From Candidatus Omnitrophota bacterium (GTDB lineage Bacteria; Omnitrophota; Gorgyraeia; JAGLLT01), in the NCBI GenBank assembly GCA_030632085.1, contig DAOVJY010000001.1, positions 271,402 through 335,401 of the forward strand: a DNA stretch of 64,000 nucleotides. Reading direction: 5' to 3'. Position 1 is the stretch's first letter; each line of letters opens with the position of its first letter. Position numbers and translations under genes: made by a program. This document shows, in pieces, positions 4,631-64,000 of the stretch. The notes under the pieces are model-generated. The model saw nothing but the letters and a program-made list of their open reading frames with translations, ran no database searches and was not told where the DNA came from.

Positions 4631-5949
4631 TTTACGCTCCTGCCTTTGTTTGTTTTTTTAGTTTCTCTTTTTCTCTTTATTTCTTTGGCGGGTACTCCCA
4701 CCACAACAGCGCCGCTTCTAACTTTACCTTTAGTTACAAGTGAATTGGCTCCGGTGATAGCACCTTTACCAATCTCCACAGGAGCCACAAGAATACTACC
4801 GCTACCTATAAAAGCATTGTCCCCTATAATGGTCATATTTTTTTCTTTGCCGTTATAATTAGCGGTTACCGCGCCGGCTCCTATATTAACTTTTTCGCCC
4901 AGCTGGCTGTCTCCAATATACGCCAGATGACTAACTTTACTATTTGATTTTATTGTCGCCCTGACTATTTCAACAAAATTACCAAGCTTAACATTATCTT
5001 TAATAACTGAACCGGGTCTAATTCTTAAAAAAGGCCCTAGACGACATTTTTTGCCTATCTTAACATTTTTCTCTATCCTAACAAAAGGCTCAATAATTGT
5101 ATCCGCCCCTATTTCTACATTTTCATCAATATAAACCGTATCAGGGTCGATAATCGTTACTCCTCCTTCAATAATTCGTTTCACAATTCTCTTGCGCATA
5201 ATCTTATGAACCTGAATTAATTCAAAGCGTGAATTAATGCCGATAATCTCTTCTACATCAAGAGTCTCATAAGAATCAATTTTTAAATCCTGCAAAGAAA
5301 GCACTTCAATAATATCAGTAAGATAATATTCCCTTTTTATATTATTGCGCTTAATTTTATAAATATTATCAAAAAGACTTTTGGCTTTAAAACAATAGAC
5401 CCCGGTGTTAATCTCTTCAATAACCTTTTCATATAGTGAAGTGTCTTTTTCTTCGATAATTTTTACAACTCGGCCTTCATCGTTTCTTAGTATCCGGCCG
5501 TAACCGGTTGGGTTCTTAATCGTTGCCGTTAGAACACTACAATCCGCTTTGCTTTTTCTGCTAACTTCTATTAATGCCCGAAGAGTTTCGTTTGATATAA
5601 GCGGCGCGTCAGCACACAAAACTAAAACATCACCCTTAAACCCTGAAAGTTTCTTTATGCCCTGCTTCACAGCATCTGCAGTGCCTAGAAGTTTCTCTTG
5701 AATTACAATCTCACTTCTGGAGCCGATGAATTTAACAACATCCTTCGACTTATAACCGATTACAGTAACAACCTTTCCTATACCTAAAGACCGCAAAGTA
5801 TCTAAGGTATATTGAATTAAAGTTTTGCCGTAAATACTGTGCAGAACCTTGGGAATTTCTGAGTTCATTCTGGTACCTTCACCGGCAGCTAAGACAATAC
5901 AAGCTACATCGGTCAAGATTTTCATAGATTTGTTTGCCTTTTTTTTCAT
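4627..5949 (-). CDS. glmU: Bifunctional UDP-N-acetylglucosamine pyrophosphorylase / glucosamine-1-phosphate N-acetyltransferase
   Basis: The N-terminus has IVLAAGEGTRM and the C-terminus has left-handed beta-helix hexapeptide repeats. An alternative ATG start at 5925 (MKILTD) is possible. Confidence 0.9.
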   Translation of the reverse strand: MKKKANKSMKILTDVACIVLAAGEGTRMNSEIPKVLHSIYGKTLIQYTLDTLRSLGIGKVVTVIGYKSKDVVKFIGSRSEIVIQEKLLGTADAVKQGIKKLSGFKGDVLVLCADAPLISNETLRALIEVSRKSKADCSVLTATIKNPTGYGRILRNDEGRVVKIIEEKDTSLYEKVIEEINTGVYCFKAKSLFDNIYKIKRNNIKREYYLTDIIEVLSLQDLKIDSYETLDVEEIIGINSRFELIQVHKIMRKRIVKRIIEGGVTIIDPDTVYIDENVEIGADTIIEPFVRIEKNVKIGKKCRLGPFLRIRPGSVIKDNVKLGNFVEIVRATIKSNSKVSHLAYIGDSQLGEKVNIGAGAVTANYNGKEKNMTIIGDNAFIGSGSILVAPVEIGKGAITGANSLVTKGKVRSGAVVVGVPAKEIKRKRETKKTNKGRSVK

Positions 5950-55300: not shown

Positions 55301-57709
55301 ATGATAATAACATTTTTAACTCTTTTCTTAGCCGCTGTTGCTTTCTTAATATATGAAATACTGTTAATGAAAACCTTAAGCATAGTCGGCTGGAGCCATT
55401 ATGCTTATATGGTTGTAAGCCTTTCTATGCTGGGCTTGGGTTTTAGCGGCGTAATTTTAGGCCTCTTTCCTAAATTTTTCCGGCAAAACCGCGACATTTG
55501 TATATTAATCGGCGGTTTCCTGTTCAGCCTTATGCTGCCTATAACTTTTTACATAAATCAAAAACTGCCCTTAAATTATCTTTATCTGGTATGGGACTGG
55601 CGGCAGTTCATATATATAGGGGTAAGTTATTTTTTATACGGAATTCCTTTTTTAATAATCTCTACCATATTAGCCATTTTCTTCATTAGGCACCCTAAGA
55701 AAACAAATCAAGTATATTCGGTAAACCTGTTCGGTTCGGGGCTTGGTGTTTTCTGCGCTGTCGTTATTATGCATTATGTTCAGCCGGAAAAGTATATCTT
55801 TGTATGCAGTGTTTTGGGCGCTTTAATGGCTTTTGTTTGGGGACTAAGATACAAAAAGTTAAGCAAGAGACTTATTCTCAGCTTCGTTTTTATAATAATC
55901 TTTTTAATAAACTTCTTTCTCATCCCCTCTTCTTTAATACAATATATCTCTGAATATAAAGGACTGCCTTCGCTTTTAAGATTACCGGGAACAAAAATAG
56001 TAGATACATACTTTAATCCTTTCGGCTATCTGCATGTTGTAGAAGGCAAAAAGGTAAGAATAGCTTCAGGTTTGAGCATAACCTATAAAGAGAAGATACC
56101 GTTACAAAAAGCTATTACATTTGACGGTGATGCCCCCTCTCCTATTTTAGATCCGGACAATATAAGTTCCGCTTTTTTTGATGATTTAATTTTTTCAGCC
56201 GCTTATAGCGTTAAGTCAAAACCTAAAGTACTTCTGATAGGAGCCGGTGGTTTTGGCAACGCTCTGCTGGCTAACTATCATAACAGCAGATACATTAATG
56301 TATTAGAGATAAATCCCAAGGTTATTACAGCGCTAGAAAAGAATATGACAAGTTCTTTTGGCCGGTGGATAAAAAAGGCAAATGTAAAAATAACCAAAAC
56401 AGACGCCCGAAGCTACATAGAAAAATCTCAAGAGGAATTTGATATTATTCAAATGGATCCCGCCGGCACCCTGACTTCGTCCGCTTCCGGACTATTCGCG
56501 CAAAATGAAGACTACTTAAATACCGTTGAATCATACAAACTTTTTATAAATAGACTTGCCCCTGATGGTATATTTATGATAAGCCGGTGGATGAGCACAC
56601 CGGCAAAAGGTGGAATAAAATTATTCGCTACCGGAGTTAGGGCATTAGAAGAGCTCGATATAGAAAACCCCCAAAACAACTTAGTCTTGATTAAAAACTG
56701 GGACATTATAACCCTGCTGATAAAAAAAGAACCCTTTACTGCGACCGAACTAAAAAATATAAAAAATTTCTGCAATAAAAAACATTTTGATATTTCGTAT
56801 TTTCCCGAGATACAAAAATCCCAGGCAAACCGCTTTCACATTCTGCCTGAGCCAATATATTATCTGGCGGCGCAGAGCATAATAAACAAGCAAGCGCGAG
56901 AAGATTTTTTTACAAATTACATATTTAATGTTAGGCCGGCTGTTGACAATAAACCTTACTTTTCACATTTTTTTAAATGGTCCGCCCTGCCTTATCTTAT
57001 TGGAACTTTAGGTAGAGAGTGGATTCCTTTTTCTGAATATGGTTATTTAATGCTCTTGGCTTCTTTCGTTCAATCTTTGGTGGTAGGTGGATTACTTATA
57101 CTTTTGCCTTTAGGAATTTTGGTTTTTAGGCGCAAAAAAGAAAACAGCGTTAAATTTAAATTTAATACCTGGTTCTATTTTGTATTTTTAGGCTTATCAT
57201 TTATGATTTTAGAAATGGGCTTAATTCAAAAGTTCATCCTTTTTCTGCATAACCCTATATATTCCGCCTCTATTGTAATAGGTTCATTTCTTACCATCTC
57301 AGGTATTGGGAGCATGATAAGCAAAAGGCTTTTTAATAAACAGGTGAAATATCAGATAATACCTTTTATAATAATTATAATTTTAGCCATTTTATATGCT
57401 TGTTTTCTTGATCCACTTTTTTCCAAACTAATGGGATTAAATATTTATATTAAACTCTTGCTTTCGATTATAATTATTGCCCCTTTGGCTTTGCTTTTAG
57501 GCATTCCTTTTCCCCTCGGAATGAGAAAAATATCTCCCACCGGTGAAGTCAACACAGGTATAGCTTGGGGATGCAATGGGTTTTTCTCGGTAATAGGTGC
57601 TATTTTAACCCCTATATTAGCCATGCTTTTGGGGTCTCAAATCGTGATTTTGATAGGCGGGCTAGGTTATCTTTTGGCAATGCTTATGTGGAAGATTAAG
57701 TTTGACTGA
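55301..57709 (+). CDS. Polytopic membrane protein with a central spermidine-synthase-like (aminopropyltransferase fold) domain
   Basis: About 8 N-terminal and about 5 C-terminal TM helices flank a Rossmann methyltransferase-like domain (VLLIGAGGFGNALL...IIQMDP). Confidence 0.7.
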   Translation: MIITFLTLFLAAVAFLIYEILLMKTLSIVGWSHYAYMVVSLSMLGLGFSGVILGLFPKFFRQNRDICILIGGFLFSLMLPITFYINQKLPLNYLYLVWDWRQFIYIGVSYFLYGIPFLIISTILAIFFIRHPKKTNQVYSVNLFGSGLGVFCAVVIMHYVQPEKYIFVCSVLGALMAFVWGLRYKKLSKRLILSFVFIIIFLINFFLIPSSLIQYISEYKGLPSLLRLPGTKIVDTYFNPFGYLHVVEGKKVRIASGLSITYKEKIPLQKAITFDGDAPSPILDPDNISSAFFDDLIFSAAYSVKSKPKVLLIGAGGFGNALLANYHNSRYINVLEINPKVITALEKNMTSSFGRWIKKANVKITKTDARSYIEKSQEEFDIIQMDPAGTLTSSASGLFAQNEDYLNTVESYKLFINRLAPDGIFMISRWMSTPAKGGIKLFATGVRALEELDIENPQNNLVLIKNWDIITLLIKKEPFTATELKNIKNFCNKKHFDISYFPEIQKSQANRFHILPEPIYYLAAQSIINKQAREDFFTNYIFNVRPAVDNKPYFSHFFKWSALPYLIGTLGREWIPFSEYGYLMLLASFVQSLVVGGLLILLPLGILVFRRKKENSVKFKFNTWFYFVFLGLSFMILEMGLIQKFILFLHNPIYSASIVIGSFLTISGIGSMISKRLFNKQVKYQIIPFIIIIILAILYACFLDPLFSKLMGLNIYIKLLLSIIIIAPLALLLGIPFPLGMRKISPTGEVNTGIAWGCNGFFSVIGAILTPILAMLLGSQIVILIGGLGYLLAMLMWKIKFD

Positions 57710-57745
57710 TGCGGAAGCCCTAACGGAAGTCAAACATTACGGATA
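57708..57745 (-). repeat. Degenerate box-only copy (f), 5 nt 3' of the MBL-fold gene stop
   Basis: gcggaagccctaacggaagtcaaacattacggata aligns without gaps to the box consensus, with about 20/35 identity (gccctaac vs gccccaac and a shared cattacggata tail). Its position relative to the stop codon matches copy (c). Confidence 0.35.
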
Positions 57746-57750
57746 GATAT

Positions 57751-58680
57751 TTATTTAACATAGGTATTTTTTAGAAATTTCTTAGTACTAACCTTACCCT
57801 TGGCATAATCTTCATGCCAGCTTTTAGGAACAGGCATATCTTTATACAACTGCCTGCGTTTAGCTTCAAGTAACATTCTGGGTCTTTTCATGAAATCGGC
57901 CGCGCAAATAACTTTTTTTCCTGTCTCAAGAGATAGGCGACTTAACCATCTAACTCCTTCCAAATTCCTCAACAAATGATGGTCAAGAATTAAAATATCA
58001 ACTTTAAAAGCAAGTTGTTTGGCGTTGTGCCAGGCTCTTTCAATTTGATTTTTAGAAAGTCTGGATAAATAAAGAGGAGGTCCACCAGTCAGTACTATAT
58101 TAGGAGACCAAGATAATATTTTAAAGATTGCTTCATCATTAAGGAGTTGAATATCAGAAGCATGTACAAATACATCTCTGCCTTCCTCGAATTTCGTCAT
58201 CATTACTGTCTCTGAATTATCATTTGCTTCTCCATGAGGCACCGATTTAGAAAAAGTCATTGGTCCTTTTCTTTTTCCTTCTACTGAAATCAAATTTTTC
58301 TTCAGGTTAAGAGACAAAGACTCTACTCGTTTTTTCTCAATAGCGGACAAATGGGACAAATCTTTGCTCAAAATCCTGATTTTTTGATTTAAGCCAATTA
58401 CTCTTTTAAGGGCGAGTTGATAAGGATTAGCATTTGCTAAAGGGATATGGTCTCCATGAAAATGGCTAATTACTATATCAGTAGCTTGCGACCATCTTTT
58501 TATAATCTTTTTTTGTATCCTCTCACCTACTGCTACCTGAATTGGATGGGGCAGCAAATCATATCTTCTATAACCTAAAGCTACTCCCGGGTCAATTAGA
58601 ACTTTACGGTTGCCGGTTTTTACAAAGCAACATAGACCTCTAACCCCTAAAGACTCAGCTCCTATAATTTCAATATCCAT
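57751..58680 (-). CDS. MBL-fold metallo-hydrolase
   Basis: An HxHxDH motif (SHFHGDHI) and further His/Asp ligands. Confidence 0.7.
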   Translation of the reverse strand: MDIEIIGAESLGVRGLCCFVKTGNRKVLIDPGVALGYRRYDLLPHPIQVAVGERIQKKIIKRWSQATDIVISHFHGDHIPLANANPYQLALKRVIGLNQKIRILSKDLSHLSAIEKKRVESLSLNLKKNLISVEGKRKGPMTFSKSVPHGEANDNSETVMMTKFEEGRDVFVHASDIQLLNDEAIFKILSWSPNIVLTGGPPLYLSRLSKNQIERAWHNAKQLAFKVDILILDHHLLRNLEGVRWLSRLSLETGKKVICAADFMKRPRMLLEAKRRQLYKDMPVPKSWHEDYAKGKVSTKKFLKNTYVK

Positions 58681-58974
58681 CTAACACCATTATTCTATCT
58701 TCTCCAAACGTGCTCATGGCAATTAGAAATGTCATAAGAATTAGGGATGTTGCTTAAAGTTTAAATTTACGCAAACACTCTATGCGGCTGTTGTTATAAG
58801 GAATTTTAATATTATACATACATATTATACATTACGCGTATATAATTTTCAAACTCAGTTCTTTGGTTCTATTTCGCATTTCATCTGTACTAACATAATA
58901 TATGAAGTTCGTATGATAAGGAGTTTGTGGCAAAATGAAAGATATGTCTGTTTATGAATCTTAGATAACTCAAC

Positions 58975-59047
58975 AATAAACCCGAAAGAAATTAATCTTT
59001 CAGGTTGTTTTTATGGTAGCCCCAACCTGTGCTGTTCACTACGGATA
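58975..59047 (-). repeat. Copy (c) of the box-plus-terminator repeat, immediately 3' of mazF
   Basis: The hairpin AAACCCGAAAG-aaattaat-CTTTCAGGTT is followed by the box ATGGTAGCCCCAACCTGTGCTGTTCACTACGGATA. The box ends 5 nt before the mazF stop codon. Confidence 0.6.
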
Positions 59048-59052
59048 CTTTA

Positions 59053-59391
59053 TTACACTCCAATAATTTCATTTAATCCTTCAACCACAAGACTTAACTC
59101 TTCAGGCAATATACTACCGGCTTTTTTTCCTAACCGCTTAACCGACAAAGTGCGAATTTGGTTTATTTTAACCCACGATTTTTTAGGTAATTTTGAACCG
59201 CTAAGTTCTAACGTTAACGGAAATCCCGCTCGCTGAGACTGACTTGTAAGAGCAACTGCTATAACAGTACCAGATCTTTCATTAAAAACTTCATGGCTAA
59301 GAATAAGTACAGGTCGTTTACCGGCCTGCTCGCTTCCTCTAACCGGATTTAAATCCGCCCAAACAACATCACCCCTCAATATTCCGGCCAT
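59053..59391 (-). CDS. mazF: MazF/PemK-family type II toxin endoribonuclease
   Basis: [26 protein letters not shown] is the typical PemK/MazF N-terminus. Confidence 0.85.
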
Positions 59392-59618
59392 TGTTCAATC
59401 TCCTCCGAAAAACCTTCCTCCGCTATAGCTTGTTCAAATGAGGAGTCTAATTTCGCGCATTCCCTGGCAAGGCGGCTATGATCAAGGCGTGCCAATTTTT
59501 CCCTAACCGCGTCCTGCACAATCTTGCTTCTGCTTGGAAATACATGGGATTTAACAAGCCGATCTAATCTAGCCAACAACTTATGTTCAATACTAATAGC
59601 TACTTTTGATGTTCTCAT
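59376..59618 (-). CDS. Ribbon-helix-helix (CopG-like) antitoxin partner of MazF
   Basis: 80 aa with an RHH N-terminus ([18 protein letters not shown]) and an acidic C-terminus. It overlaps mazF by 16 nt. Confidence 0.7.
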
Positions 59619-59732
59619 GATTGCCTCCTTTGGTATTACTATACATCATACCGGAAGTTTTTACAAGTATATTTTGAATCCTTGCTTTTATTTCGTAATT
59701 TGTCTGTAATAACATAAAATGAGGCGCCAACA

Positions 59733-59804
59733 AATAACCCGAAAGAACTTAATCTTTCGGGTTATCAACATGGTAGCCCCAACCCGTGCTGTTCACTACG
59801 GATA
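59733..59804 (-). repeat. Copy (d) of the box-plus-terminator repeat, 3' of abiEii
   Basis: The hairpin AACCCGAAAG-aacttaat-CTTTCGGGTT is followed by the box ATGGTAGCCCCAACCCGTGCTGTTCACTACGGATA. Confidence 0.6.
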
Positions 59805-59869
59805 GGTTATTTCTATTAAATCTTTGCAATTTTTTCGCCCATCATTATATCATAATTCTTTCTAAAATT

Positions 59870-60784
59870 TTATTTCCATGGTCCGGAAACTTTCCATTTC
59901 GCATTAAATTTCTCATTTTTATTAATCGCAATAAGTGGTTTAATAAGAAACTTTTCTATCTCTCTGGCTATTATGTTCAACTTTTCCGGTACATACTTAA
60001 TATCTACCTTTTTCAGAAAGGCCCTCCATAATGTCTGACGATCGGACTTTTCGTCATAAATTTCTCCGGCAAACAATGGTTTACATTGTGGTAAAAAAGT
60101 TTTACGCTGTTTAAAAGTTCTTTTTAACGCTTCAGCAAGCCTTAATCCGTCAAAGTTAAACTGACGCATCATGAGCCAAATATCATAAAAATCTTTCATC
60201 CGGCTATTAAGAAGGCCCAGTTTTATCATAGCTTCAAATTTCTCACTAATAACGCTCTCCGCCGGATATCCTTTAAGTTTAGGTTTAGGAAAATCTAAAA
60301 TAACAGGATATTCAATTATTTTCGGCTTTGGATAAATGCTATCTCCAAAGCCTAAATCAATTTGCATAGGAATGCGAGAACGCTCAAGCACTCCGACAAA
60401 CTTAACCCGCACTCCTTCATAATCGGCATCTTCTTTGATGCGTTGACCTTTCACGCCATTAGAATCAAATATAATACCATCTGAAATCACATCTATTTTA
60501 CAAATATCCTTCATCATTTTCTCAATACTAAATATCTGGTTATCATATTGCGCTGAAAAATCTATATCAAGGGTTGCCCTTCGCTCGGGCACATGCCACA
60601 CAGTAAACATCAAAGCCCCCTTAAGAATAAACTTATCCGCATATTTAGACTGACTAACACGATAAAGAAATCTCTCTATTCCATAATATTGCAAAACCTC
60701 TGAAAATGGACGATTGCTTTCTCTCGCCTTATTTTGAAGCTGAGCCCGGATAGAGGCTTTTAAATTTTTAATGTCTTTTTTCAT
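59870..60784 (-). CDS. abiEii: AbiEii/AbiGii-family nucleotidyltransferase toxin (type IV toxin-antitoxin / abortive infection)
   Basis: The nucleotidyltransferase motif KGALMF...DIDF (GG/GS...DxD), a length of about 300 aa and a 4-nt overlap with the upstream AbiEi gene. Confidence 0.75.
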   Translation of the reverse strand: MKKDIKNLKASIRAQLQNKARESNRPFSEVLQYYGIERFLYRVSQSKYADKFILKGALMFTVWHVPERRATLDIDFSAQYDNQIFSIEKMMKDICKIDVISDGIIFDSNGVKGQRIKEDADYEGVRVKFVGVLERSRIPMQIDLGFGDSIYPKPKIIEYPVILDFPKPKLKGYPAESVISEKFEAMIKLGLLNSRMKDFYDIWLMMRQFNFDGLRLAEALKRTFKQRKTFLPQCKPLFAGEIYDEKSDRQTLWRAFLKKVDIKYVPEKLNIIAREIEKFLIKPLIAINKNEKFNAKWKVSGPWK

Positions 60785-61383
60785 ATCATTGTTTCAAGCA
60801 TTGGTTTAATAATTTTATGTACACGGCAAATCTTAGCGTATTTCATTATTTCGAGTGGTTTTATGCCCTTTACGGTAACCGCTATCTTAAGTGCATCCAT
60901 GGCAATATTTACACCTATTCTATTGCGAAACTTAAAACAATCAGCGACCGTTTTAGCAAGGCTGTAAACTCTGATTTTATGCCCTTCAGCTTGATGCACT
61001 TCAACGCCGGCATTCCAAGTTTTAACTGAAAAACGATAAAATCGTACTGGTGGGTATTTAATTTTATTGGTACGAGTCCCCGCGGGAATTGCAATATCTA
61101 CATACCCGGGTATCTCGTTCGTTGCTTCATGAAAAAAAAGGGCCGACACAAGACAAACAATCCCTCTTAGCGCCTGAAGAGACGCAATGACAAGATCAGG
61201 ATGCGGTCCAAACGTATAATGAGTCATCCGGTAAAGTCCCCTGGCAATCTTCTCTATTTCACCTTCTTTTTCAAGTTCTTTAAGCGTATCCGAATGAAAC
61301 CCCGCTTTTATAATTGAAGAAAACCGTGCAATGCCACCATGTTTTTTAAAATAGTTAAACATTTTCTCTGTTTTTTGTTTCAT
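60781..61383 (-). CDS. abiEi: AbiEi-family antitoxin / transcriptional regulator
   Basis: An N-terminal wHTH-like region (FSSIIKAGFHSDTLKELEKEGEIEKIARGLY) and a C-terminal AbiEi domain. It pairs with AbiEii. Confidence 0.7.
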   Translation of the reverse strand: MKQKTEKMFNYFKKHGGIARFSSIIKAGFHSDTLKELEKEGEIEKIARGLYRMTHYTFGPHPDLVIASLQALRGIVCLVSALFFHEATNEIPGYVDIAIPAGTRTNKIKYPPVRFYRFSVKTWNAGVEVHQAEGHKIRVYSLAKTVADCFKFRNRIGVNIAMDALKIAVTVKGIKPLEIMKYAKICRVHKIIKPMLETMI

Positions 61384-61407
61384 AGCCTCTCCGTATAAAT
61401 TGTCATT

Positions 61408-61421
61408 ACTTATAAATAAGT
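61408..61421. promoter_or_regulatory. Perfect 14-bp palindrome ACTTATAAATAAGT in the abiEi promoter, a candidate AbiEi operator
   Basis: ACTTAT/ATAAGT inverted repeat 24-37 nt upstream of the abiEi ATG. AbiEi proteins autoregulate through promoter inverted repeats. Confidence 0.4.
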
Positions 61422-61539
61422 ATATACACTTTATACGATTATGTCAATGCTTTTTTTATTGCAGGGAAAAGTTACTATACACATAGCACAATGCCAATTC
61501 TTTATAACAACTATTCATAATGATATGGTGAATAAAAAA

Positions 61540-61618
61540 TCCTCTCCTAATTTTATTTTAAGAGAGGACTTCTATACTAAACTATGGTAGCCCCAACCCG
61601 TGCTGTCCACTACGGATA
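61540..61618 (-). repeat. Copy (e) of the box-plus-terminator repeat, with a different hairpin
   Basis: The hairpin TCCTCTCCTAA-ttttatt-TTAAGAGAGGA is followed by the box ATGGTAGCCCCAACCCGTGCTGTCCACTACGGATA (1 mismatch to copy d). A U6 tract follows on the minus strand. Confidence 0.6.
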
Positions 61619-61904
61619 CTTTATTTATATTTACAGTTGATGGCATATAACACTAGCGCTCATAGGCCACTGGACAGAAAACGTGGCGTTCCTTGTGCAG
61701 CGATTGCATCAGACATTGAATTATATTACTCCAGAGATGATGGAATTAAAGACTGTCGCTTAATTAATCTGTCTGTTAAGCCCGGCATAGCTCATTATGT
61801 CTCTTTAATTCATTCTTGGCTTGTGCTGGGAAAACGTTAAGAAAAATAATGCCTAGGAAAAGATACGCTAGCCTTGTATCGTCAGGAGGAATGATTAAAA
61901 CACT

Positions 61905-62531
61905 TTATCGATGAAATAGTTTTTTATATTCCCCTTCTAAAACAGATTGCGCATCATCTATAATTTTGTCGTATTTCGCTATTAAATTTAGCAAGCCGCG
62001 CTTGTAGCACATCAGTAATCCAATTGTGCAGATTATAATAAGTGCGATTGCAAGAGCCCAAGACCGCAACTGCTCTATTATTATAACATTAGAGATAAGT
62101 TCATTAATAAGAACTCCTATAATGCAGATAATAGCTACAATAAAATACACGATACCGTGAAACGAAATAACTGGTCTTGTTTCGTTCTTTCTATCAATAA
62201 CATCAAGAGCGAATGTATCTTTTAGGCGCCTCTCGATTTTCGTATCTTCTATTTGTTGTATCTCATCATTCTTGTCTTTTAATTCATTAATTTCATAATT
62301 AGAGTATGCTAATCCTATACCTATGCTTGACATAGCAAAAACTGCAAAGAAAATGTTGGTTGTTGCGCTTGAGACACAGGTAGGAATTTTATGCTTATAA
62401 CAAAGCATGCCTATTATAATTAAAAGAGCAAAATAACTAAAGCGGATAACGTGTTTTATAATTGGCGTAGTTTGTTTTAGTTTGAAAAAAGGAAGAAAAA
62501 AAATCATTTTCAGGAAGGGATTTTCTGCCAA
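61905..62531 (-). CDS. Hypothetical 4-TM membrane protein (duplicated 2-TM hairpin plus charged helix)
   Basis: Four hydrophobic helices arranged as two 2-TM hairpins, each followed by a Lys/Glu-rich helix. It overlaps the upstream gene by 22 nt. Confidence 0.5.
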   Translation of the reverse strand: MAENPFLKMIFFLPFFKLKQTTPIIKHVIRFSYFALLIIIGMLCYKHKIPTCVSSATTNIFFAVFAMSSIGIGLAYSNYEINELKDKNDEIQQIEDTKIERRLKDTFALDVIDRKNETRPVISFHGIVYFIVAIICIIGVLINELISNVIIIEQLRSWALAIALIIICTIGLLMCYKRGLLNLIAKYDKIIDDAQSVLEGEYKKLFHR

Positions 62532-63037
62532 ATGGCATCAAATGTCTCTTCTAATTTTTTGGCTACTGGCGGGTTGTAAAAGTTAACATTACCCTTAACT
62601 ATACTATCCTCATCATTTTCGTCTTCTGGGTTATGCAGATCTTCTATCCGGTATCCTTTTTTATCTACCACAGCAAAGTGTTTAACCCAATTTTCTTGTA
62701 TACGCTCAGAGTCGACTGTTTTTATCTCAACCTTTCCTCCAAAATCGCTTTTCAATGTGTCTAAAATTTCATCCATTTTAATTTTGTGCCAGACAATTAC
62801 CTTTATTGATATGTTTTTTTTCACAAGTTTTTTAAAAGATTCTATCATTCCTTGGTGATTAAAGAACCGTTCGCTCAAGGTACCCGTGAGAATTTTGACA
62901 CTTTTTTCCGCTTTCTCAAATAGCAAATCTGTAAGATATACTGCATGCTCTAACGTGCTATTTGGTATGTTTATATTCTCTCGTCTATCTCTTGCTAATT
63001 TCGCTCGTTCTTTATAGTCGACTATGTCCATGTTCAT
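62510..63037 (-). CDS. Hypothetical soluble protein with PLD-like-domain resemblance (no intact HKD motif)
   Basis: The pattern KSVKILTGTLS...ISIKVIVW...VKHFAVVDKKGYRIED...FDAIWQ resembles the secondary-structure rhythm of a Nuc/PLD-like domain. The spacing does not fit HxK-x4-D. Confidence 0.4.
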   Translation of the reverse strand: MNMDIVDYKERAKLARDRRENINIPNSTLEHAVYLTDLLFEKAEKSVKILTGTLSERFFNHQGMIESFKKLVKKNISIKVIVWHKIKMDEILDTLKSDFGGKVEIKTVDSERIQENWVKHFAVVDKKGYRIEDLHNPEDENDEDSIVKGNVNFYNPPVAKKLEETFDAIWQKIPS

Positions 63038-63497
63038 GCCTCCTGTTATTTTAAGTTCTGTATCCCCATAAGATTATCTCGCTATGTTCACCACGTACAC
63101 TTCTGATGTGATTCATTTTGATGAAAAAAATAGCACGAAATCGAACATTCGCGCTCTTGTATACAATTAAGTACTCCTTCAATCATAAACCTCTCCTTGG
63201 GGACCATAAAAGGCTCGTTGCAGGTTATAGTTTGGATGTTTAAAGTATACATCACTCGCTTGCCCCTTGTCAAGTCCAAACTAATATTTCTTTTTGGCTC
63301 CCATTGTGCTATTTAAATTCTCAACATTGATAAAGCCTGCTCCCTGAAGGAGGAGAAGTTCACGGCAATGGACTTACCAATATCTCCCAATTTCTTAAAT
63401 CAATCAGTCGCACTTTTATCCAATTTCGAATATTGCCACACTTTTTTATCCATTTTTTTACCATAACAATTAATATCCAAACTGTTTTCTTTAAGTA

Positions 63498-64000
63498 TCA
63501 CGGATACTCTATTTCCATCAAATCTTCGCAATTCCTTATTCCCATTATTATATCATACTCCGCATTTTTATAAATCATAATTTTAGCCGTTTTTTCTCTT
63601 GGATTTACTATTATTTCTTTTACAAATTGCCTTATAAACTTCTTCTTTTCCTCCATAGCACCATGCTCTAAAACATCGTTAAAGTTATCTAAATAGCCTA
63701 ACATCTTCTTTGTAATTCTCTCTATATCAGTTTTCCCTTCCAGGTTTGTTGTAATTTTAATACGTTCATCTAAAAGCATATCTCTTGTATGCTCCAGCTT
63801 ATTTATATTGGCCACTGCCCGGTCTAAATTGAGGCCCCTTTCTATCGCTTCCTCCCAATTCCTGATTTTTAAAGCTATTTCCTTAATCTGTATATCCAAT
63901 TCCCTGAGCCTGTTATCTGACCTATCCTGCATTAGAGAGATCTTTTCTCTCAGCTTATTTTCTAAATCTTCTCTCCACGTTCCGGTATCCAGCTTTTCCA
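63498..64000 (-). CDS. Large serine recombinase, C-terminal coiled-coil/tail region (partial; N-terminus beyond the window end)
   Basis: The ORF is open upstream to position 64000 (...EKLDTGTWREDLENKLREKISL-MQDRSDNRLRELDIQIKEIALK...). The coiled-coil and the terminal EEKKKFIRQFVKEIIVNPREKTAKIMIY match the typical large-serine-recombinase C-terminus (EEKRELIRLLIDKIEV...KIEIHY). Confidence 0.5.
   Translation of the reverse strand, partial: EKLDTGTWREDLENKLREKISLMQDRSDNRLRELDIQIKEIALKIRNWEEAIERGLNLDRAVANINKLEHTRDMLLDERIKITTNLEGKTDIERITKKMLGYLDNFNDVLEHGAMEEKKKFIRQFVKEIIVNPREKTAKIMIYKNAEYDIIMGIRNCEDLMEIEYP

Follow-up and report, generated by a model that had tools for sequence, protein, structure and literature searches.

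A small phospholipase D-fold protein and its variable membrane partner in an Omnitrophota genomic island: a possible toxin-antitoxin or abortive-infection module

Two adjoining minus-strand genes were studied in a 64,000-nucleotide stretch of DNA from a Candidatus Omnitrophota bacterium (GenBank assembly GCA_030632085.1, contig DAOVJY010000001.1, positions 271,402 to 335,401 of the forward strand). The whole of this stretch is referred to as the window; it lies on a 349-kb scaffold of a metagenome-assembled genome. An initial annotation had described the genes as a module of unknown function, encoding a soluble and a membrane protein, and as a candidate for a novel defence or toxin system. Two open reading frames (ORFs) were confirmed where it had placed them, at 62510-63037 (175 aa) and 61905-62531 (208 aa, TTG start), and the four peptide strings it had quoted are all present in the soluble product. 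The gene for the soluble protein is here called A and that for the membrane protein B. The order of A followed directly by a small membrane protein was found to be kept at every locus sampled. The features of the putative A-B operon are as follows.

62510..63031, minus strand: gene A, a 173-aa predicted cytoplasmic single-domain protein of the phospholipase D (PLD) superfamily, DUF7931 family; an alternative ATG at 63037 would give 175 aa
61905..62507, minus strand: gene B, a 200-aa predicted inner-membrane protein; a TTG at 62531 would give 208 aa
63244..63273, minus strand: promoter-like site of the A-B operon, TTGACA, 18 nt, TATACT, with 11 of 12 matches in a consensus scan
63132..63155, minus strand: hairpin and U-run in the leader, between the promoter-like site and A, from a scan for terminator-like elements
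61531..61574, minus strand: predicted intrinsic terminator of the A-B operon, a 16-bp stem and a 7-nt loop, then UUUUUUAUU

The start of A is most likely the second ATG (63031, 173 aa). AGGAGG is located 7 nt upstream of this codon, the homologue P0002 aligns with A from an identical MDIVDY, and public gene calls also begin at 63031. The 22-nt overlap of the two genes reported in the initial annotation arises only with the TTG start of B (62531); with the ATG at 62507, which is positioned 2 nt beyond the TGA stop of A (TGAAAATG), it disappears. A convincing Shine-Dalgarno site was absent at both of these candidate starts. Because the first transmembrane helix is conserved among homologues, a start of B upstream of residue 16 is required. 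The tight linkage of A and B is certain; their overlap is not.

Upstream of the homologous pair at locus L002 there is a TTGACA/TATAAT promoter-like site, with which the -35 and -10 blocks seen here align. The promoter is a consensus match only, from which we infer the start of transcription. The terminator was overlooked by the consensus scan and was recovered by folding (-19.1 kcal/mol, z -4.46; 0/200 shuffles folded equally well). The leader hairpin, which is followed by AUUUUUUU and lies within a leader of about 200 nt, folds at -11.4 kcal/mol (z -2.45). It may represent an attenuator or have arisen by chance, and no conservation of it was visible at L002, L012, and L017. A structured leader or riboswitch upstream of A was considered and rejected (z -1.0 for the whole leader, leader sequence not conserved), and an Rfam scan of positions 57000-64000 gave no matches. 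About 270 nt (61632-61904) separate the stop codon of B from a repeat described below. This interval has no minus-strand ORF, its sole plus-strand ORF (61637-61840, 67 aa) has no family match, and it would form a long 3' untranslated region of the A-B transcript.

Word-index searches detected one other close relative of A (P0002, 54% identity) and none of B. All four contigs encoding P0002 carry, directly after it, a gene for a 192-aa protein with 36% identity to B (E 2e-32). Co-conservation of the two genes, which had been proposed as a check on the initial idea, was thereby observed in a second lineage. The pairing was examined at 14 distinct loci, for which A-family members were taken at decreasing similarity. 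At 14 of the 14, A is followed on the same strand by a membrane protein of 158-213 aa, with a gap of -22 to +35 nt. The partners are grouped as follows (L numbers denote loci).

Window, L002, L012, and L017: partner with four transmembrane helices; these partners are 30-39% identical to one another
L015 and L016: partner with three transmembrane helices
L010, L019, and L020: partner with three transmembrane helices
L022 and L024: partner with three transmembrane helices
L007 and L018: partner with two transmembrane helices
L026: partner with four transmembrane helices and no BLAST similarity to the other partners

Their common layout consists of one or two transmembrane helices, a hydrophilic stretch of about 20-100 aa, and one or two more transmembrane helices; a charged tail closes every partner except that of L026. 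Only two links between partner groups were found with hhalign, one between the four-helix group and L015/L016 (82%) and the other between L010/L019 and L020 (95%). The first of these spans the second transmembrane helix and the start of the charged helix. The homologues of B co-vary with the subfamilies of A. These comparisons suggest that A is the conserved core of the pair, and that the partner evolves fast or is replaced while its architecture is kept. The partners diverge much faster than A, a pattern typical of pore or holin-like effectors. No third gene common to the loci was found. The layout expected of two-gene toxin-antitoxin and abortive-infection modules, a pair of small genes in the same direction, in tight linkage and kept together across lineages, was present at 14/14 loci.

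At L020 the partner gene (4655-5197, after the A homologue P0070) had not been called; it is an intact 180-aa ORF with three transmembrane helices, a TTG start, and an AAGGGA site. Since this gene was missed by the gene caller, automated annotation may under-report such partners.

Neither protein had been assigned to a family in the initial annotation. For B this still holds, but A was found to match Pfam DUF7931 (PF25559) at 28.9-29.0 bits (E 1e-6, residues 33-172) with a gathering score of 27, and it is by this measure a marginal member. Matches of A to DUF7436 (PF24217; 22.7 bits, below the gathering score of 34.2) and to PLDc_2 (17 bits) fell under the cut-offs. Among 67 relatives of A, DUF7931 was matched by 23/67 (best E 1.4e-15) and DUF7436 by 5/67; single members matched Regulator_TrmB (n = 1) and FilR1_middle (n = 1). 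DUF7931 and DUF7436 are uncharacterised, no paper mentioning either was found in a literature search, and the relatives of A carry no protein names in their sources. At E <= 1e-3 an exhaustive HMMER search recovered 837 cluster representatives, of which 124 remained at E <= 1e-10. Standalone proteins of 160-250 aa make up almost the whole family. Nine longer members have N-terminal extensions without a Pfam match, and no fused extra domains were found in them; neither A nor these nine contain a helix-turn-helix (HTH) or winged-helix domain. No DNA-binding or signalling output domain was found in any A-family member examined. One apparent member, the kinesin P0093 (1605 aa), was rejected as a spurious low-complexity match. 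Matches of A or B to housekeeping families, which would have spoken against a defence role according to the initial annotation, were not found.

The earlier guess that A resembles a Nuc/PLD-like domain was borne out by structure prediction. The AlphaFold2 model of A has a mean predicted local distance difference test (pLDDT) score of 75 and a predicted template-modelling score of 0.73. Foldseek matched it with a probability of 1.0 to the C-terminal domains of TrmBL2 and TrmB, Zucchini, Nuc, PLD3/4, vaccinia F13, the C-domains of PPK, and the PLD domain of SauUSI; template-modelling scores across the fold matches were 0.5-0.64. Matches of the lipid-enzyme type (3hsi, 7e0m, PLD1/2) were also found, and the model resembles poxvirus and giant-virus PLD proteins in BFVD. 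The top E-values belonged to TrmBL2 and TrmB (1e-7 to 1e-5). In profile comparisons, the A family matched the poxvirus nicking-joining enzyme (E 4e-4), Nuc (0.033), and PLD3 (0.08). A is predicted from these models to have a PLD/Nuc-type alpha/beta fold.

Residue conservation in A was measured on an alignment of the 67 relatives, which are 23-55% identical to the protein of the window. E130 is invariant, and Y6, N24, A30, H118, F119, D123, R128, H133, F151, and F164 are conserved in at least 90% of the sequences. The motif of the family reads H118-x4-D123-x4-R128-x-E130-x2-H133 ... N150-F151-N, compared with the canonical H-x-K-x4-D-x6-G-S-x-N (the HKD motif). In the profile alignment, H118 and D123 pair with the HKD histidine and aspartate of Nuc, PLD3, and the poxvirus nicking-joining enzyme. 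A two-residue gap in A falls where the 'xK' of HKD is located, so that the lysine position is deleted; the residue two positions past H118 is not conserved, and R-x-E-x2-H stands in place of G-S-x-N. The absence of a canonical HxK-x4-D motif, already noticed in the initial annotation, was seen in both the family and the profile alignments. Since the canonical motif is lacking, A should not be filed as a canonical PLD enzyme. The conserved polar residues are predicted to sit where PLD active-site residues lie, and the conservation of pocket residues across 23-55% identity argues for a functional pocket, not a dead scaffold.

In fold and size, A is most readily compared with Nuc (Salmonella pKM101, PDB 1byr) and Zucchini/PLD6, each a single domain of about 150-170 aa (Foldseek probability 1.0, template-modelling scores 0.55-0.64). 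H118, D123, and the C-terminal N-F-N strand of A align with the HKD histidine, the HKD aspartate, and the matching strand of Nuc. Nuc and Zucchini homodimerise to form one active site. Unlike these proteins, A has the 'xK' deletion, which puts the aspartate at His+5 instead of His+7, and the R-x-E-x2-H replacement of GSxN; it also has a family-specific N-terminal extension with a conserved Y6 and an I-P-N-S-T motif, and it is always paired with a membrane protein. The C-terminal domain of TrmB/TrmBL2, which gave the best Foldseek E-values, is like A a PLD-like fold without an HKD motif. In contrast to TrmB, A lacks an N-terminal winged-helix DNA-binding domain, its partner is a membrane protein and not DNA, and it retains a histidine at the PLD nucleophile position together with conserved arginine, glutamate, and histidine residues.

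Four transmembrane segments were identified in B by hydropathy (16-34, 48-66, 116-134, and 149-167). Hydropathy and AlphaFold2 secondary structure both indicate that the second and fourth segments run on into two long charged helices (about 69-105 and 168-198). The helices of the single-sequence AlphaFold2 model (15-38, 47-87, 116-138, and 145-198; pLDDT 60) are consistent with two helical hairpins, in each of which the second helix is extended as a long charged helix. Counted as loop charges, the N-terminus carries +4 and 0, the linker nine and the tail seven lysine or arginine residues, and the outer loops are almost uncharged. This positive-inside distribution places both charged helices in the cytoplasm, and the predicted topology is N-in/C-in; the periplasmic loops of the window protein would be of only about 8 and 14 residues. 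A conserved motif, S-x-G-x-G-x3-S-N-Y-E-x2-E-L-K, is located at the cytoplasmic end of the second transmembrane helix. The two hairpins with charged helices thus agree with the initial annotation, but the duplication it had proposed does not: hhalign of the two halves gave a probability of 0.5%, and internal duplication was rejected. As the halves have no detectable sequence relationship, 'duplicated' describes the architecture only.

B has no family match in Pfam, NCBIfam, PHROG, or PADLOC (PADLOC-DB v2.0.0 was used for models of defence systems). Neither B nor the other partners matched SLATT, holin, or other membrane-effector families above threshold. Sub-threshold family matches vary from partner to partner, which is consistent with noise from transmembrane composition.

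The genomic contexts of the A-B relatives are varied and were recorded as follows.

L001: neighbours Panacea, HepT/MNT, AbiEii, and AAA_14
L002: neighbour IS21
L010: neighbour Mutator transposase
L015 (4381-4581) and L016 (3849-4055): an excisionase/AlpA-type HTH-like gene of 66-68 aa directly before A-B (the 'HFLVSD' subfamily; by sequence inspection)
L019: neighbours ParB and a DUF5906 primase
L020: neighbours IS1595 and P63C
L022: neighbours a large serine recombinase and ParB/RepB
L007 and L018: metabolic genes only
L024 (5001-6088) and L025 (808-1895): A-B between fusA (EF-G) and tuf (EF-Tu), in the rpsL-rpsG-fusA-tuf-rpsJ cluster

By raw count, about 9 of the 14 loci are near toxin-antitoxin, defence, transposase, recombinase, excisionase, or ParB genes; at L012, L017, and L026 the flanks are too short to judge the context. 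The arrangement at L015/L016 suggests that A-B is there the cargo of a small integrative element. Small phage-like ORFs are also present at L015. The pair at L024/L025 consists of a 173-aa A and a 188-aa protein with three transmembrane helices, the last base of A being the first base of B; the ribosomal gene cluster is an unusual site for an accessory module. Taken together, the contexts point to A-B as an accessory unit that moves horizontally and is frequently, though not invariably, found among conflict genes. The clusters of the A family were found almost only in uncultured bacteria.

The pair in the window is part of a defence-type island, as had been claimed, with AbiE, PemK, Panacea, and PDC-S31 genes. 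The same genome was read past the window end in L005. First in the gene order of the island is a tRNA-Glu(ctc) gene (L005 5703-5780, about window 67252-67329, minus strand), beyond the window end and about 4.2 kb upstream on the same strand. It is followed by a 115-aa ORF, an MqsA/HTH/Panacea protein, a 69-aa ORF, a DUF2971 protein, a serine integrase remnant, A-B, repeat 3, AbiEi/AbiEii, repeat 2, a ribbon-helix-helix (RHH)/PemK cassette, and repeat 1. AbiEi and AbiEii, which had been named as neighbours, are indeed located immediately downstream of A-B (PADLOC E 6e-64 and 4e-98). The second neighbour named, a recombinase, was found to correspond only to the C-terminal third of an integrase. 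It is a 192-aa ORF (63498 to about 64076, L005 8956-9534) that runs past the window end and has no Pfam domain; its match to the 651-position profile of the PHROG 95 large serine integrase is confined to positions 414-564 (E 7e-8). It would be either what is left of an integrase or a coiled-coil protein, and not a complete recombinase. The DUF2971 protein (L005 7914-8711, 265 aa, about 1.3-2.1 kb past the window end) strongly matches PDC-S31, a candidate single-gene defence system in PADLOC (E 3e-59).

Genes with a Panacea domain are located upstream of A-B in both close-subfamily lineages. In the genome of the window it is a Panacea-domain (SocA_Panacea) gene fused to MqsA/HTH (L005 6410-7426). 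On the P0002 contigs a 185-aa Panacea protein is followed by a 117-aa ORF (L001 5428-5994, L002 3748-4305, L003 624-1181). Common descent of the islands or a functional link may lie behind this arrangement.

Several two-gene systems resemble A-B in architecture. Lambda RexA/RexB and Kiwa KwaA/KwaB, which act in abortive infection or defence, combine a cytoplasmic protein with a small four-helix membrane protein of about 150-200 aa and follow the same two-gene logic; the first gene of Rex is the soluble one. The likeness is limited to architecture, with no sequence relationship, and RexA and KwaB do not have the PLD fold. In the type V pair GhoS/GhoT, the soluble partner is a nuclease encoded upstream. 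PanA/PanT(D11), RosmerTA RmrT(D5), and GhoS/GhoT all have, as A-B does, a small soluble protein beside a small transmembrane protein. It has been documented that soluble antitoxins neutralise membrane-depolarising transmembrane toxins, some of these pairs being anti-phage; the transmembrane protein of PanT/RmrT/GhoT-type pairs depolarises the membrane, and some such pairs defend against phage (PMC10440598). A further likeness is the proximity of Panacea-domain genes to A-B in two lineages. However, no homology of A-B to PanAT, RosmerTA, or GhoST was detected, and A is not a Panacea, HTH, or RHH antitoxin.

The matches of A in PADLOC were weak and partial, namely the PLD region of MkoC (E 1e-4) and pAgo (1e-3). 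The 67 relatives of A matched, weakly, only MkoC (8/67), DrmC (2/67), and JetC, and none of ten partner proteins gave a match below E 0.03. Both MkoC (Mokosh) and DrmC (DISARM) are large multidomain proteins; the matches to their PLD nuclease domains reach an E of 2.6e-5 at best and are confined to the N-terminal half of that domain. Unlike Mokosh and DISARM, A-B has no helicase, ATPase, or other components and does not keep the HKD motif. No PADLOC system corresponds to the A-B pair, and a literature search found no paper on a small PLD-like protein paired with a membrane protein. A soluble enzyme-like protein with a small membrane effector is a known architecture; the A-B pairing and a PLD core without the lysine appear to be undescribed.

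What the analysis shows comprises the two genes, the fold of A and its variant motif, the predicted topology of B, the strict synteny of A with a following membrane protein, and the island context. The reading that we favour, tentatively and with somewhat less than even confidence, is that A-B is a self-contained, horizontally mobile toxin-antitoxin or abortive-infection module in which B is the membrane effector and A a phosphodiester-binding controller; which partner is toxic, what triggers it, and its biological role are points that we infer. By analogy with Nuc and Zucchini, A would dimerise and build one active site at the interface. It would bind, and possibly cleave, a molecule with a phosphodiester, which could be nucleic acid, a nucleotide, or the head group of a phospholipid. 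A would dock on the cytoplasmic charged helices of B, and the state of its conserved phosphate-binding pocket (ligand occupancy or turnover) would be coupled to the activity of B. Once released or activated, B might oligomerise and depolarise or permeabilise the membrane, and growth would be arrested in infected cells or in cells from which the element has been lost. The documented pairs of soluble antitoxins and membrane-depolarising toxins (PMC10440598) provide functional precedents for such a mechanism, as do Rex and Kiwa.

A number of observations weigh against this proposal. The HKD lysine is essential in PLD enzymes studied so far, and with this residue missing A may not be catalytic. 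The best Foldseek matches of the A model are the non-enzymatic ligand-binding domains of TrmBL2 and TrmB. B matches no pore-former family, and its model is of low confidence (pLDDT 60). Proximity of homologues to defence genes had been proposed in the initial annotation as a check, and many loci do lie near toxin-antitoxin, defence, or mobile genes, but 3-5 of the 14 contexts (L007, L018, L024/L025) have no mobile or defence genes. No A-family members were found in GTDB species-representative genomes, PLSDB plasmids, GenBank phages, or IMG/VR, and the evidence for mobility is therefore indirect.

The same data bear on three other explanations. A could itself be the effector, a dimeric nuclease like Nuc or Zucchini, with B as a membrane sensor or anchor that holds it inactive until phage entry or envelope stress, a logic that is that of Kiwa or Zorya. 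The catalytic-type histidine is conserved, the closest enzymatic matches are nucleases (Nuc, Zucchini, PLD3/4, the poxvirus nicking-joining enzyme, and the PLD domain of SauUSI), weak PADLOC matches lead to the PLD nuclease domains of MkoC and DrmC, and the rapid divergence of the partner could have been driven by an arms race at a sensing surface. However, the lysine of HKD is deleted and the GSxN block is replaced, periplasmic loops of about 8 and 14 residues offer little surface for sensing the outside, and a nuclease left unrestrained in the cytoplasm would ordinarily require an inhibitor of its own. We regard this explanation as unlikely. It appears quite unlikely that the pair is a split membrane-lipid enzyme, with B as the anchor and an A dimer as the PLD-type catalytic unit that remodels or hydrolyses phospholipids, either in envelope adaptation or as a lipid-degrading effector. 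Bacterial cardiolipin and phosphatidylserine synthases carry a membrane anchor in cis; the PLD superfamily includes these synthases as well as phospholipases, and 3hsi, 7e0m, and PLD1/2 are among the fold matches. A membrane partner is obligatory (14/14 loci), and some contexts (L007, L018, L024) are non-mobile. Yet A lacks the full HKD motif that, to our knowledge, all characterised PLD-type lipid synthases and lipases keep, and the sporadic, island-borne distribution is unlike that of a core lipid pathway. Lipid-metabolism genes are not consistently nearby, and the anchor of a conserved enzyme has no obvious need for such fast divergence.

The loss of the catalytic lysine could also mean that A is a TrmB-like, non-catalytic ligand-binding domain that reports a small metabolite to a non-conflict membrane protein, as an accessory of transport or signalling. 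TrmBL2 and TrmB are the top Foldseek matches (E 1e-7 to 1e-5), and one family member matches Regulator_TrmB and another FilR1_middle. This explanation is very unlikely in our judgement, given the lack of a DNA-binding or signalling output domain in the members examined, the conserved His, Asp, Arg, Glu, and His at PLD active-site positions, and contexts in which toxin-antitoxin, defence, and mobile genes prevail and neither a transporter nor a kinase is conserved as a neighbour. A bolder version of the module reading is that A-B represents a widespread, unrecognised two-gene immune or addiction family, in which a lysine-less PLD-fold enzyme would sense or process a phosphodiester signal, for example the end of a nucleic acid, a nucleotide, or a lipid head group, through its His/Arg/Glu/His pocket and directly gate a fast-evolving small membrane pore. 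We consider this version doubtful.

A working toxin or defence module would be a new compact system of about 1.1 kb, in which cytoplasmic sensing is wired to membrane disruption by only two small proteins. Its PLD-fold core would lack the lysine thought to be essential and yet have a strongly conserved alternative pocket, and a function could be assigned to Pfam DUF7931 and DUF7436. If the reading of a phosphodiester-gated pore were true, it would add new enzyme chemistry to the PLD superfamily and a new effector class. A split lipid enzyme or a plain accessory protein would be of modest value, for family annotation. The strict pairing provides a handle for finding modules: a conserved soluble gene and a partner that is variable in sequence and constant in architecture.

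The repeat unit noted next to A-B in the initial annotation (61584-61631) is one of three att-like direct repeats in the window, where none was expected by chance.

59013-59060: att-like repeat 1, located 3' of PemK/RHH
59770-59817: att-like repeat 2, located 3' of AbiE
61584-61631, minus strand: att-like repeat 3, in the putative 3' untranslated region of the A-B transcript and at the distal edge of the A-B island segment

Each repeat contains an exact copy of the 14-nt 3' end of tRNA-Glu (GTTGGGGCTACCAT), preceded by an inverted 15-16 nt of the flank that follows the tRNA; jointly, the halves appear to reconstruct a symmetric attP-like site. We read the three repeats as scars of att sites. 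An integron-like array of attC cassettes was rejected, because the repeats are copies of the tRNA-Glu 3' end with inverted distal flank and no IntI-type integrase is present in the island. The pattern resembles repeated site-specific insertion at tRNA-Glu with later decay, and the island looks like what remains of elements integrated one after another, chiefly their toxin-antitoxin and defence cargo. The internal repeat junctions are without the second arm expected from integration. Repeats 1 and 2 extend to 104 nt (58971-59074 and 59728-59831, 80% identical) and share a terminator hairpin (58979-59010 and 59732-59763; -14.7 kcal/mol, z -5.1), probably the one native to tRNA-Glu. The PemK/RHH cassette is bracketed by these two copies of the tRNA 3' end plus terminator, an arrangement that is not predicted by simple integration.

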